Assembly (NCBI RefSeq): GCF_003018255.1 | Contig: NZ_CP027440.1 | Direction: 5' to 3' (one strand) | DNA from: Escherichia coli | GTDB taxonomy: Bacteria; Pseudomonadota; Gammaproteobacteria; Enterobacterales; Enterobacteriaceae | Length of the DNA: 64,000 nt | Position numbers and translations under genes: made by a program | In this document: positions 27,143-53,871 of the stretch, piece after piece | Position numbering within the stretch: the stretch's first letter is position 1 | Layout: each line of letters begins with the position of its first letter | The notes under the pieces: generated by a model | Seen by the model: only the letters and a program-made list of their open reading frames with translations | Database searches by the model: none | What the model was told of the DNA's origin: nothing

Positions 27143-27194
27143 AAATGCCTCTTCTGAACTCTCCCGACGTCAACAACACTCCTTCGGAGGCGAC

Positions 27195-28232
27195 ATGTCA
27201 GACAAAGACTTAACCCAGCCCCCAGCAGGCGAGTTTATTATGTTTGCCAGCGGTGACGGAAGAGTGCGTGTTGAATGTCGCTTTGAGTCAGACACAATCT
27301 GGTTATCCCAGGCGGCAATGGCTGAACTGTACGATAAAGATGTTCGCACTATTAACGAACATTTAATCAATATATTTTCCGAAGGTGAACTTGTTCAAAA
27401 CTCAACCATCCGGAAATTCCGGATAGTTCGCCAGGAAGGAAAACGTCAGGTTTCCAGAGAGATAGACCATTACAACCTCGAAGCCATTCTCGCTGTCGGC
27501 TATCGCGTTCGCTCGCCTCGAGGCACGCAATTCCGCCAGTGGGCCACCCAGACGCTTCAGGAATACCTGATCAAAGGTTTTGTGATGGACGATGAGCGGC
27601 TGAAGAATCCGCCTGTCGGTTCATCGGTTGTGCCCGACTATTTTGATGAGATGCTTGAACGCATCCGCGATATTCGCGCCAGCGAGCGTCGGGTATATTT
27701 GCGGGTGCGGGAGATCTTTGCTTTAGCTGCCGACTATCAGCCATCACTAAAAGAAACCACGCAATTTTTTCAAACCATCCAGAATAAACTGCATTTTGCC
27801 TGTACCGGGCATACCGCTGCGGAACTCATCCACAAACGAGCAGATGCCAGCCAGCCGCACATGGGCTTGACCAGTTATAAAGGTGAAGAGGTACGTAAGG
27901 GCGACGTGACGGTGGCAAAAAATTATCTCACCCAGGATGAGGTCAGCGAACTTAATCGCGTGGTTAATATGTGGCTGGACTTTGCCGAGGATCAGGCCCG
28001 TCGTCGTCAGCAAGTCTTTTTGCGCGACTGGCAGGATAAGCTGGATCAGTTCCTGCAATTTAACGACCGAGAGGTTCTACAGGGCGCTGGTAAAATCAGC
28101 AAGAAAATGGCCGATGAAAAAGCGCAGGCGGAGTATGTTCAGTTTGCCGAACAACAACGGCGCTTAAAAGAAGCCGAAGGCGAGAAGGATATCGCTGGTT
28201 TGCTACAGTGGAATAAAGAGTCGAAAAAGTAG
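27195..28232 (+). CDS. RhuM-family protein (selC-islet cargo)
   Basis: 345 aa from ATG 27195 with GGAGG RBS; N-terminus …EFIMFASGDGRVRVECRFESDTIWLSQAAMAELY… is typical of RhuM family; track ORF starts at a GTG inside selC. Confidence 0.75.
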   Translation: MSDKDLTQPPAGEFIMFASGDGRVRVECRFESDTIWLSQAAMAELYDKDVRTINEHLINIFSEGELVQNSTIRKFRIVRQEGKRQVSREIDHYNLEAILAVGYRVRSPRGTQFRQWATQTLQEYLIKGFVMDDERLKNPPVGSSVVPDYFDEMLERIRDIRASERRVYLRVREIFALAADYQPSLKETTQFFQTIQNKLHFACTGHTAAELIHKRADASQPHMGLTSYKGEEVRKGDVTVAKNYLTQDEVSELNRVVNMWLDFAEDQARRRQQVFLRDWQDKLDQFLQFNDREVLQGAGKISKKMADEKAQAEYVQFAEQQRRLKEAEGEKDIAGLLQWNKESKK

Positions 28233-28338
28233 CCCGGAATCCCCCCAAACGCCATACGCAAAACCATTTGGGGGTACTTATGGGGTTACTCATTTATCAA
28301 ATTCAAAATATAAACATTAAATCAATAACTTAACCATC

Positions 28339-28375
28339 AAATGCGACTCCTGTGATCGCCAAAATGCCTCTTCAG
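28339..28375 (+). repeat. Imperfect direct repeat of the selC 3' end plus flank (att-like scar)
   Basis: gcgactcctgtgatcgccaaaatgcctcttcagtga matches 27121-27158 apart from a 3-bp gap and about 2 mismatches. Confidence 0.7.
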
Positions 28376-28439
28376 TGATCCCCATCCTGCTTATTTCTGA
28401 GCAACCTGACCCTGCTGATGTATCTGGTAGTATGACAGA

Positions 28440-28661
28440 GTGATTCGTTTTTCTTGCCGAGTGTACGAAAACGTCTTCCTTGCCACCGACTATCAACCGT
28501 CACTCAAAAAAACCTCTCTTTTTTTCAAGCTATCAAGAATAAGTTGCATTTTATCTGCACCGGACACCAGCCATCCATATATGGCTTTTACCTGCTACAA
28601 AGATGAAGAAGTGCATAAATGTGATGTTAAAACAATCAAAGAAAAATTACATGCGCAATAA
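28440..28661 (+). pseudogene. Internal fragment of a second rhuM-like gene
   Basis: …FLATDYQPSLKKTSLFF…YMAFTCYKDEEVHKCDVKTIKEKL aligns to residues about 170-250 of the intact copy at roughly 70% nucleotide identity; no start or N-terminal domain. Confidence 0.65.
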
Positions 28662-50893: not shown

Positions 50894-51029
50894 CTCATAG
50901 CCCTTATTTATGTTTATGTCCCGGACGCATGAATATAGGGAGAGGTAAAATGCGTCGGGTCAGGCAGTCAGATTCTTAAAATACAAACGTCGTATCCCTG
51001 AACGGATTGTTTTCTGTTAAGTTCAGGTT

Positions 51030-51926
51030 GTGAGCATAATTCGCCGGAGGGATATTAAAATGAATGGAAAATTGCAAAGTTCGGATGTAAAAAACGAAAC
51101 TCCGTACAATATTCCCTTATTGATTAACGAAAATGTGATCTCCAGCGGAATTTCTCTGATATCGCTCTGGCATACCTACGCCGACGAGCATTATCGGGTG
51201 ATCTGGCCGCGGGACAAGAAGAAACCGCTTATCGCCAACTCATGGGTTGCGGTGTATACCGTACAAGGATGTGGGAAAATTCTTTTAAAGAATGACGAGC
51301 AAATAACTCTGCATGGCAACTGTATTATATTTTTAAAGCCAATGGATATTCACTCTTATCACTGTGAAGGTTTGGTCTGGGAACAGTACTGGATGGAATT
51401 TACCCCCACCAGTATGATGGATATTCCCGTCGGTCAGCAAAGCGTTATTTATAATGGCGAAATTTATAATCAGGAACTCACCGAAGTTGCTGAATTAATT
51501 ACTTCACCAGAAGCAATAAAAAATAATCTGGCAGTCGCTTTTCTGACGAAAATTATTTATCAGTGGATTTGTCTTATGTACGCAGACGGTAAAAAAGATC
51601 CACAACGGCGGCAAATTGAAAATTTAATTGCCACTTTACATGCCAGTCTGCAACAACGCTGGAGCGTAGCTGATATGGCTGCCACGATCCCCTGTAGCGA
51701 AGCCTGGTTGCGTCGTCTGTTTTTACGCTATACCGGCAAGACGCCGAAAGAATATTACCTCGATGCGCGTCTGGATCTGGCGCTATCGCTATTAAAACAA
51801 CAAGGAAACTCGGTTGGCGAAGTCGCTGATACGCTCAACTTCTTCGACTCCTTTCATTTCAGCAAAGCCTTTAAGCATAAATTTGGTTATGCGCCGTCAG
51901 CTGTGCTGAAGAATACGGACAGGTAA
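51030..51926 (+). CDS. yidL: AraC-family transcriptional regulator
   Basis: C-terminal AraC HTH; GTG at 51030, alternative ATG at 51060. Confidence 0.8.
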   Translation: MSIIRRRDIKMNGKLQSSDVKNETPYNIPLLINENVISSGISLISLWHTYADEHYRVIWPRDKKKPLIANSWVAVYTVQGCGKILLKNDEQITLHGNCIIFLKPMDIHSYHCEGLVWEQYWMEFTPTSMMDIPVGQQSVIYNGEIYNQELTEVAELITSPEAIKNNLAVAFLTKIIYQWICLMYADGKKDPQRRQIENLIATLHASLQQRWSVADMAATIPCSEAWLRRLFLRYTGKTPKEYYLDARLDLALSLLKQQGNSVGEVADTLNFFDSFHFSKAFKHKFGYAPSAVLKNTDR

Positions 51927-52015
51927 TAACCAGAATGGCGAGTGTGTAAATGACTCGATGATGTTCAGAAATACCAGGTGGAGTACCATTTACGGCGACT
52001 CCACCCGGAAAAGAG

Positions 52016-53677
52016 TTAACCGATACTCCAGAAGAGCACCGCCAGTAATTGGGGGGTGATAATGCGCAGGAACATCACTAACGGATAGACAGTGGCGTAA
52101 GAGAGCGCCGCCGCACCGCTGGTTGGATGAAGATTATTAGCAAACGCCAGCGCCGGAGGATCGGTCATGGAACCTGCCAGCATCCCGCACATGGTCAGGT
52201 AATTCATTTTGGCTAACATCCGCGCCAGAATGCCAACAGTAATCAGCGGAACGGCGGTGATCAGGGCACCATAACCAATCCAGCTTAGCCCTTCGCCATT
52301 GACCAGGGTATTCACAAAATCCCCACCAGATTTCAGACCAACGACCGAGAGGAACAGCACAATGCCTAACTCGCGTAGCGCCAGGTTAGCGCTTGGTGGC
52401 ATAAACCAGTACAGCTTGCCGATACTGCCGATACGCCCGAGGATCAACGCCATAATCAGCGGACCGCCCGCCAGCCCGAGTTTCAACGCCGCCGGGAACC
52501 CAGGCACAAAGACGGGAATAGAACCTAACAATACGCCAAGCCCGATACCAATAAACACTGGCAGCATCTGAACCTGTTGCAGTTTTTGCTGCGCATTCCC
52601 CAGCACATTGGCAACGGCATCAATTGCGGACGGACGCCCCACCAGGTTGAGGATATCGCCGAACTGCAGGCTGATATCGCTACTTGCAACTAATTCAACA
52701 CCAGCACGGTTCAGGCGCGAGATAACAACGTCATAGCGTTCTTTAAAGTGCAGGTCGCGAATACGTTTACCGAGCACGTTTTCATTGGTGACCACCACAC
52801 GCGCGACGCGCAAATCAGTGCCTTTCGTAGACAGCGAGGTATCGACCTCCTGACCAATCACCAGTTGCGCATTATGTAAATCCGCAGGCTGCCCCACCAG
52901 ATGCAGCAAATCGCCCAGTTGAATAACGGTTTCTGGCGAAGGCACTTTTAGGGTTTCTTCTCGTTTCAATCGTGAGCAAATAACTTTATCGCCATTGAGA
53001 ATCGGCACATCTTTAATGGCTAAATTATGCAAATTAGGATTCTCAACTCGGATGTTAATCGTCCTGATTAGCGCACCGCCGTTGGTTCGCGTGGACTCGT
53101 GCTGCTGGGCCTCAGTCTCAACATTGACGCGGAAAATAACCCGCAGCATCCACATAGTGAACAAAATGCCGCAAATCCCAAATGGATACGCCATCGCATA
53201 GCTCATCCCCATTTGATCGACCATCGCCATCGGTGTCCCCAGGTCGCGCAAGATCTGCTGCCCTGCCCCCAGCGCTGGCGTATTGGTGACCGCGCCGGAA
53301 AAAATCCCCAGCACTACCGGCAGTGGAATATCAAACAGTTTATGCAGGATGGCGGTAACCAGACCACCGATGATGACGATCAGAACAGCAAACAGGTTGA
53401 GGCGTAATCCGGAGACGCGCAATGAGGCAAAGAAGCCCGGCCCTACCTGAATCCCGATGGTATAAACGAACAGGATCAGGCCAAACTCCTGAATAACATG
53501 CAGCATATCGCTACTTAATGTCATCCCCGCCTGAGAAACAAAATGGCCGACGATGATCCCACCGAACAGCACGCCGCCAATGCCCAATCCAACACCGCGA
53601 AACTTGACGTTGCCGATAAACAACCCGACGACCGCCACCAAAGCCAGAATACTGACCGTTAATGCTATATCACTCAT
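52016..53677 (-). CDS. yidE: Putative transporter YidE (AAE family, two TrkA-C domains)
   Basis: 553 aa from ATG 53677. Confidence 0.85.
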
Positions 53678-53871
53678 CGTCCATTTCTCTTGAGATAACA
53701 TTTTAATTGCTACGGATTATGGCTGAATCGGTGAAGCAGATTTGCCTTATAGCGCACATTATCACGGGAAAGAACGTGCCGAAATATCTTAAACAGGCGA
53801 AAATTAACGCATTGTTGAAGAAGAAAGACAAAAAAGCCCCACCAGAATGGCGGGGCAAAGAGAATAGCTAG

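Follow-up and report, generated by a model that had tools for sequence, protein, structure and literature searches.

Genomic islands of enteric bacteria often sit beside selC, a tRNA gene that is an integration hot spot; the locus of enterocyte effacement (LEE), Shigella pathogenicity island 2 (SHI-2) and Salmonella pathogenicity island 3 (SPI-3) are all selC-associated, and SPI-3 carries rhuM as cargo, as does a small islet in the DNA described here. A second system with a counterpart in this DNA is the 7,227-bp frz region between yicH and yicI in the extraintestinal pathogenic Escherichia coli (ExPEC) strain BEN2908 (PMC12928451). Here we analyse a stretch of 64,000 nucleotides (the window) from E. 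coli contig NZ_CP027440.1 (assembly GCF_003018255.1), which carries both an islet of this kind and a frz operon and in which the K-12 genes setC, yidI and glvGBC-yidP are missing. Our reading, to which we assign a probability of about 0.88, is that the window is an ordinary E. coli segment, running from yicC to yidX, of a non-K-12 lineage with B2-type alleles at three known variable spots: selC-yicL (site a), yidJ-yidH (site b) and yidL-yidE (site c).

The islet resembles the large selC islands of E. coli CFT073 and IAI39 in its position 3' of selC, in a repeat of the selC 3' end and in an island-end motif, but it measures 1.2 kb, holds one gene and is without an integrase. The frz operon of the window matches that of BEN2908 in site, in length (∼7.2 kb) and in gene content, with nothing notable different.

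Three breaks in collinearity with K-12

The full 64-kb window was compared by blastn with positions 3,795,000-3,890,000 of K-12 MG1655 (NC_000913.3), together with the MG1655 annotation. The core order from dinD to yidX is collinear between the two at 95-98% identity (K-12 3.817-3.877 Mb), and the collinear blocks break exactly at three points that a first-pass annotation, relying on K-12 gene order, had picked out. It had claimed that a RhuM islet replaces setC, that there is no room for yidI and that the glvGBC-yidP cluster is absent. The order that it assumed was correct throughout, MG1655 being annotated as selC, yicT' (a pseudogene), setC and yicL at site a, as yidH, yidI and yidJ at site b, and as yidL, glvG' (a pseudogene), glvB, glvC, yidP and yidE at site c. 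We also examined whether MG1655 itself lacks setC, yidI and the glv genes at these positions; it has all three.

At site a, window positions 27158-29436 (2.28 kb) stand opposite K-12 3,836,332-3,838,218 (1.89 kb). By alignment and annotation, a RhuM islet in place of setC is a fair short description, although the site is no simple swap: an att-flanked rhuM mini-island is followed by an alternative AT-rich module next to yicL. At site b, 47640-47687 is opposite K-12 3,856,319-3,856,910, 593 bp with yidI; the gap between the yidH start codon (up to 47628) and the yidJ stop (from 47688) is 59 bp. At site c, 51921-51925 is opposite K-12 3,861,144-3,864,511, the 3,368 bp of glvGBC-yidP, and 89 bp separate the end of the yidL stop (51926) from the beginning of the yidE stop (52016). 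Breakpoints at sites b and c were set by eye from the alignments; like the relics, repeats and population frequencies given below, they were observed directly.

The first-pass annotation had further pointed to a frz-like island as a sign of a non-K-12 lineage. The island is a 7,254-bp insertion, absent from K-12 by blastn:

15768-23021, minus strand: frz operon island between yicH and yicI

It encodes a BglG-type antiterminator, fructose IIA, IIB and IIC components of a phosphotransferase system (PTS), two aldolases, a ROK protein/kinase and an isomerase. The lineage claim holds on sequence identity too, since the window is ∼95-98% identical to K-12 against 99.8%, over 24.9 kb, to its closest complete genome, DETEC-S792 (NZ_CP116067.1). 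The 24.9-kb query used for this search (window 26800-51700) matched 5,424 of 5,426 complete E. coli genomes, and all genome counts given here are out of those 5,426, as totals per allele. The next matches after DETEC-S792 are avian pathogenic E. coli (APEC)/poultry and other strains at 99.1-99.2%. Two of them, APEC O78:H4 E14033 and APEC O2-211 (99.2%), may belong to sequence type 117 (ST117) and phylogroup G.

DETEC-S792 has the same states at all three sites, its selC-yicL interval being annotated as selC, RhuM, hypothetical and yicL; it differs in an IS200C between adeD and uhpT (locus 14249-14707) that the window is without. The comparison with a B2 genome, CFT073 (NC_004431.1, 4.34-4.38 Mb), showed the same yidH-yidJ junction, the same yidL (288 amino acids, aa)-yidE junction and the same orphan protein WP_000509808.1 by yicL, so that sites b and c and the right half of site a are shared; a large island replaces the rhuM mini-island. 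In CFT073 a DUF6708 gene (CFT073 locus 25606-26988), which the window is without, stands between uhpA and ilvN, and the tisB/istR locus (window 44442-45075; CFT073 locus 29306-29407) is missing. The B2 structural alleles recur more widely, CFT073, UTI89 and ST95-32 having the same junctions or module.

Taken as a set of states, the window has frz, the rhuM mini-island and the AT-rich module (module H), and has neither yidI nor glv-yidP. K-12 (phylogroup A) has yicT' and setC (module S), yidI, and glv-yidP in decayed form; frz, the rhuM mini-island, module H and a ∼140-bp element between uhpT and uhpC are absent from it. IAI39 (phylogroup F) combines a large island with module S, including setC, and has frz, no yidI and an intact glv-yidP, so that it shares only site b of the three with the window. 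With yidI missing but glv-yidP and setC intact, IAI39 shows that the alleles at the three sites segregate independently. Their per-allele counts (full-length frz island 1,601, yidI-less 1,412, glv-less 1,136, module H 1,103, rhuM 844) would fit nested sets. Overall identity is ∼98% to CFT073 and ∼97% to K-12; at only ∼98% to CFT073 the window is not demonstrably B2, and it appears from these identities to be a mosaic with some B2-identical tracts. The states without setC, yidI and glvGBC-yidP are old, common variants, already known and annotated in hundreds of RefSeq genomes, and because they are common to hundreds up to more than 1,000 sequenced strains, the finding is correct but ordinary.

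The selC-yicL interval

The variable DNA begins 15 nt past selC, at 27158, and runs to 29436. The features of the interval, all on the plus strand unless no strand is given, are as follows.

27048-27142, plus strand: selC (tRNA-Sec), found by ARAGORN and by Rfam (RF01852, 83.8 bits)
27121-27154, plus strand: left att-like direct repeat, the last 22 nt of selC and 12 nt downstream (repeat families D5 and D6; local alignment)
27195-28232, plus strand: rhuM, intact, 345 aa, sole gene of the 1.2-kb mini-island (Pfam PF13310)
28252-28343, plus strand: right end of the islet, akin to the sequences that close the large CFT073 and IAI39 selC islands on the right
28344-28373, plus strand: right repeat copy (4-nt gap; local alignment), apparently the original 3' end of selC in a displaced position
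28374-29436, plus strand: AT-rich module H (34.7% G+C) beside yicL, in place of the K-12 yicT'-setC module
∼28440-28661: second, putative rhuM relic within module H (repeats D1/D2; weak Pfam RhuM match)
28802-29299, plus strand: orphan open reading frame (ORF) of 165 aa within module H
29466-30389, plus strand: yicL, with K-12 homology resuming at 29437, 29 bp upstream of its start

The two repeat copies (27121-27154 and 28344-28373) are identical at 30 of 34 nt, with the 4-nt gap. Because the selC 3' end recurs at 28344-28373, rhuM sits in a 1.2-kb segment bracketed by att-type repeats. In the window, in CFT073 and in IAI39 the motif CATTTGGGGGT.CTTATGGGG.TTACTCATTTATC stands immediately left of the right repeat; in the latter two it ends the large selC island and the displaced selC 3' end then follows. 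The right repeat copy is identical in CFT073 and near-identical in IAI39, at the island ends, and homology of CFT073 to the window starts at 28252. We infer a site-specific origin for the rhuM module solely from the repeat and this island-end motif, and the module may be a shrunken relative of integrative islands of the CFT073/IAI39 type. In IAI39 selC is directly followed by a tyrosine recombinase gene, but no integrase stands beside selC in the window, and we therefore regard the islet as a remnant rather than an autonomous element. An element that integrated at selC would thus have left a 1.2-kb remnant with rhuM only, still bracketed by the duplicated selC 3' end.

The RhuM assignment rests on a match to PF13310 (E = 4.5e-118; 393.5 bits, the cut-off being 33.7; aligned over positions 1-250 of the 252 in the profile), and the protein also matches the PADLOC candidate defence family PDC-S05 (E = 2.8e-173, covering 1-339 of 346). 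A search of NCBIfam gave no match for RhuM; the same gene in DETEC-S792 is annotated 'virulence RhuM family protein'. Close homologues (88-94% identity) occur across Klebsiella aerogenes, Citrobacter, Salmonella and Enterobacter. One metagenomic PDC-S05 (RhuM-domain) gene, which encodes a different protein, has been reported to lower plating of phages T7 and T5 ∼1,000-fold (preprint 10.1101/2024.09.26.614923), and the RhuM of the window is by family a candidate anti-phage protein. A search of the literature on rhuM and selC in E. coli yielded no report dealing specifically with this islet.

Patchy distribution and atypical base composition, the marks of a tRNA-linked islet, were both found here. 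The rhuM module is present in 844 genomes, at ≥99% identity in all carriers, and G+C content is 48.8% in the rhuM module, 34.7% in module H and 51.1% in the window. Over its full length (27155-28343) the rhuM module keeps this ≥99% identity across its ∼844 carriers, while module H (28374-29436) is 95-99% identical in 743 of its 1,103. This hints at a later spread of the rhuM module than of the DNA around it.

On the yicL side of the repeat, module H would be the older, AT-rich module; in K-12 another one (yicT' and setC) stands there. Module H is carried by the window, CFT073 and UTI89, the last among the 1,103 genomes, and module S by K-12 and IAI39; setC, at ≥80% coverage, is found in 3,654 genomes. 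Sensitive blastn and tblastx searches of the window revealed no setC relic. Repeats D1/D2 of the second rhuM relic are ∼80% identical to rhuM 27730-27811. The orphan 165-aa protein is the same as WP_000509808.1 of CFT073 and is also identical in DETEC-S792; it matched no Pfam, NCBIfam or PADLOC family, and its homologues in a large-database search are named from E. coli only. On the K-12 side, yicT' is homologous to rhuM 27554-27743 (72% nucleotide identity; translation LQEYL.KGFVMDDERLKNPPVGSSV... by tblastx), and the equivalent fragment in other genomes is labelled 'rhuM' by the Prokaryotic Genome Annotation Pipeline (PGAP). By homology, K-12 yicT' is itself a rhuM relic.

The yidJ-yidH and yidL-yidE junctions

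At site b the window has a short intergenic spacer:

47629-47687, minus strand: 59-bp yidJ-yidH spacer, with a hairpin and the yidH ribosome-binding site

The hairpin has a 12-bp stem (arms 47645-47656 and 47666-47677; RNA fold −24.3 kcal/mol, z = −3.75). In K-12 the 593 bp at this point consist of yidI, on the opposite strand, its upstream region and a bidirectional terminator. About 48 of the 59 spacer bp are unrelated to K-12, and the flanking coding DNA is ordinary E. coli, with 1-2 mismatches in ∼75 nt on each side. Rfam gave nothing in either the yidJ-yidH or the yidL-yidE spacer, its matches across the window being selC, istR and ROSE only.

Among E. coli genomes we counted three alleles: yidI present (3,717, ∼69% of E. 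coli), the spacer of the window (1,412) and a type exemplified by HH97 (roughly 290). The HH97 allele is a deletion of the K-12 type, because the terminator hairpin of K-12 is still there, with a few codons from the 3' end of yidI; its junction differs from that of the window (HH97 locus 1462-1546). For the outgroups, a YidJ scan of species-representative genomes yielded 69 loci, of which 57 were tabulated for gene order. In these 57, yidI was detected between yidJ and yidH only in the 'E. coli' strain E69, Escherichia sp. E1V33, E. whittamii, Salmonella arizonae, Citrobacter youngae and Phytobacter; in most other genera yidH comes immediately after yidJ, as a rule across a short spacer that forms a hairpin. 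The first 13 nt past the yidJ stop (TGATGCATTATTG) are common to the window and the yidI-less Citrobacter amalonaticus, which also has a hairpin there, several pairs of which differ from those of the window in both bases. We read the allele of the window as the arrangement usual in Enterobacteriaceae: yidJ and yidH are joined by the short hairpin spacer, so that yidK-yidJ-yidH-yidG-yidF run head to tail, and yidI, where present, is a small divergent gene with its own terminator and promoter region.

At site c the following features were defined.

51060-51926, plus strand: yidL, short form of 288 aa, ending ...KNTDR before the stop where K-12 ends ...KNTDQHPTDASPHN (translation)
51957-52019, plus strand: 63-nt relic of the yidP 3' end (alignment by eye, translation)
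52016-53677, minus strand: yidE (sliding identity)

A tblastn comparison of YidL covered residues 1-288 of the 297 of K-12. In the yidP relic the last 47 nt equal K-12 and are preceded by a 10-nt gap and then by GATGTTCAGAAAT. Because this 63-nt relic remains, the glvGBC-yidP state of the window is a deletion. E. whittamii, Escherichia sp. E1V33 and 'E. coli' E69 share this junction down to the gap, and Escherichia sp. MOD1-EC7003 has an independent deletion in which the K-12-type yidL tail is kept. The glv-less junction of the window type occurs in 1,136 genomes and the cluster in 4,281, many with an intact glvG, unlike K-12. Moreover, the order yidE-yidP-glvC-glvB-glvG-yidL is found in Klebsiella, Kluyvera, several Citrobacter, Pseudocitrobacter, Dryocola and others; because it is so widespread in other genera, the cluster is ancestral at the site and the window has an old deletion allele. 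One old deletion would have removed the cryptic α-glucoside PTS cluster glvCBG and the GntR regulator gene yidP, clipping the yidL tail and leaving 63 nt of yidP at its right edge.

Where the cluster is present its condition varies. In K-12 it has decayed, glvG being a truncated pseudogene and glvB and glvC being annotated separately (K-12 locus 36174-38604). At the corresponding IAI39 locus (12571-15509) there is a single 1,617-bp PTS gene, against the separate glvB and glvC of K-12, together with a 1,323-bp 6-phospho-α-glucosidase gene that is intact in many other strains as well.

Next to the deletion, yidE positions 52501-53500 are 100% identical to CFT073, 92-94% to K-12 and IAI39, and 89-93% to other Escherichia lineages. 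The divergence of 6-8% from K-12 and IAI39 exceeds the regional 2-3%, and on these identities yidE represents a deep haplotype split linked to the glv deletion. A recent import of the glv-less haplotype from a sampled cryptic Escherichia clade was considered and rejected, yidE being only 89-93% identical.

Alternative readings and significance

Some observations weigh against our reading of the window as an ordinary segment with B2-type alleles and a tRNA-linked islet. The sampled non-coli Escherichia and Salmonella arizonae all have yidI, so that the allele of the window at site b could be a secondary loss, and the spacer of the window weakly resembles the yidI 3' end and terminator (ACTGTTC..CGCC..AATAATGC). 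Between the selC repeats of the window there is rhuM alone and no integrase, so that the case for site-specific integration comes from the repeat and the island-end motif. The Clermont markers chuA, yjaA, TspE4.C2 and arpA lie outside the window.

The points at site b bear on the alternative that fares best, in which yidI is ancestral in Escherichia and was deleted, and the junction remodelled, in a B2/G/F-type ancestor. We put this secondary loss at somewhat less than an even chance. It is favoured by the presence of yidI in the same place and orientation in K-12, E69, E1V33 and E. whittamii (all four that could be examined) as well as in S. arizonae, by the short likeness of the spacer to the yidI 3' end and terminator, as in HH97, and by flanks that are ordinary E. 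coli right up to the spacer. However, yidI-less C. amalonaticus agrees with the window in the 13 nt that follow the yidJ stop and in where the hairpin lies, and the true simple deletion of yidI, in HH97, has a different junction that retains the K-12 terminator.

A bolder joint reading, which we consider unlikely, is that the rhuM module is a mobile minimal cassette, that the glv-less and yidI-less junctions are selected, long-lived polymorphisms, or both. The cassette may still move between selC sites through its att-like repeats and the integrase of a resident island acting in trans; the argument for this is that the rhuM module is ≥99% identical in its 844 carriers, whereas module H differs by up to ∼3%. 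The two junctions may be structural polymorphisms kept by selection across Escherichia species, as is hinted by the divergent yidE haplotype (6-8% from K-12) linked to the glv deletion. If the cassette is indeed mobile, it would spread a single-gene anti-phage function.

Less probable still, to the point that we give it little credence, is that K-12 is derived at all three sites, with setC, yidI and glv-yidP as insertions on the K-12/A-B1 side and the window preserving ancestral bare junctions. The lack of yidI in most Enterobacteriaceae outgroups and the glv-less junction of several non-coli Escherichia lineages agree with this. However, the window keeps the yidP relic and a clipped yidL tail, many other genera have the yidE-yidP-glvCBG-yidL order with identical gene overlaps, MOD1-EC7003 has a separate deletion that started from a K-12-like arrangement, and the selC-yicL interval of the window holds 2.3 kb of foreign-looking DNA and no bare junction. 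Finally, private recent events or assembly errors in one strain can be dismissed as an explanation, no support for them having been found, because each of the junctions and modules is found again, at 97-100% identity, in 843-1,601 independent complete genomes, CFT073, UTI89 and IAI39 among them.

Returning to the window as a non-K-12 segment with B2-type alleles, we note a few other differences within it. Positions 1-1269, left of dinD, have no K-12 counterpart, homology beginning at 1270, just past the yicC stop. This tract is full-length in only 14 of the 5,426 genomes, where the feature present is an 'antiterminator Q family protein'; its first 1 kb has an AT skew of 0.22, and it has no ORF longer than 108 aa. 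It is probably the end of a rare prophage, or a remnant, at yicC-dinD. The ∼140 bp that are extra in the uhpT-uhpC spacer relative to both K-12 and CFT073 (38388-38527) form an imperfect palindrome, which we take to resemble an enterobacterial repetitive intergenic consensus/intergenic repeat unit (ERIC/IRU) element. Identity to K-12 dips at 62501-63500 (the yidX region, 72-89%) and at 31001-32500 (yicS-nepI, 86-94%), and on this evidence both tracts appear to be hypervariable or recombined.

For annotation, these results explain why the K-12 names setC, yidI, glvBCG and yidP have no counterparts in the window, and they place it in a lineage with B2-type alleles. As to the organism, we infer both the order of events and any phenotypic effect. 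Possible effects are those of losing a sugar-efflux gene and a cryptic α-glucoside PTS operon that has already decayed in K-12, those of gaining, with rhuM, a candidate anti-phage gene, and, with no yidI in between, co-transcription of yidKJ with yidHGF, the putative sulfatase genes yidK-yidJ lying head to tail here with yidH-yidG-yidF. The current picture of E. coli genome plasticity is unchanged by the window, whose differences from K-12 are routine pangenome variation.

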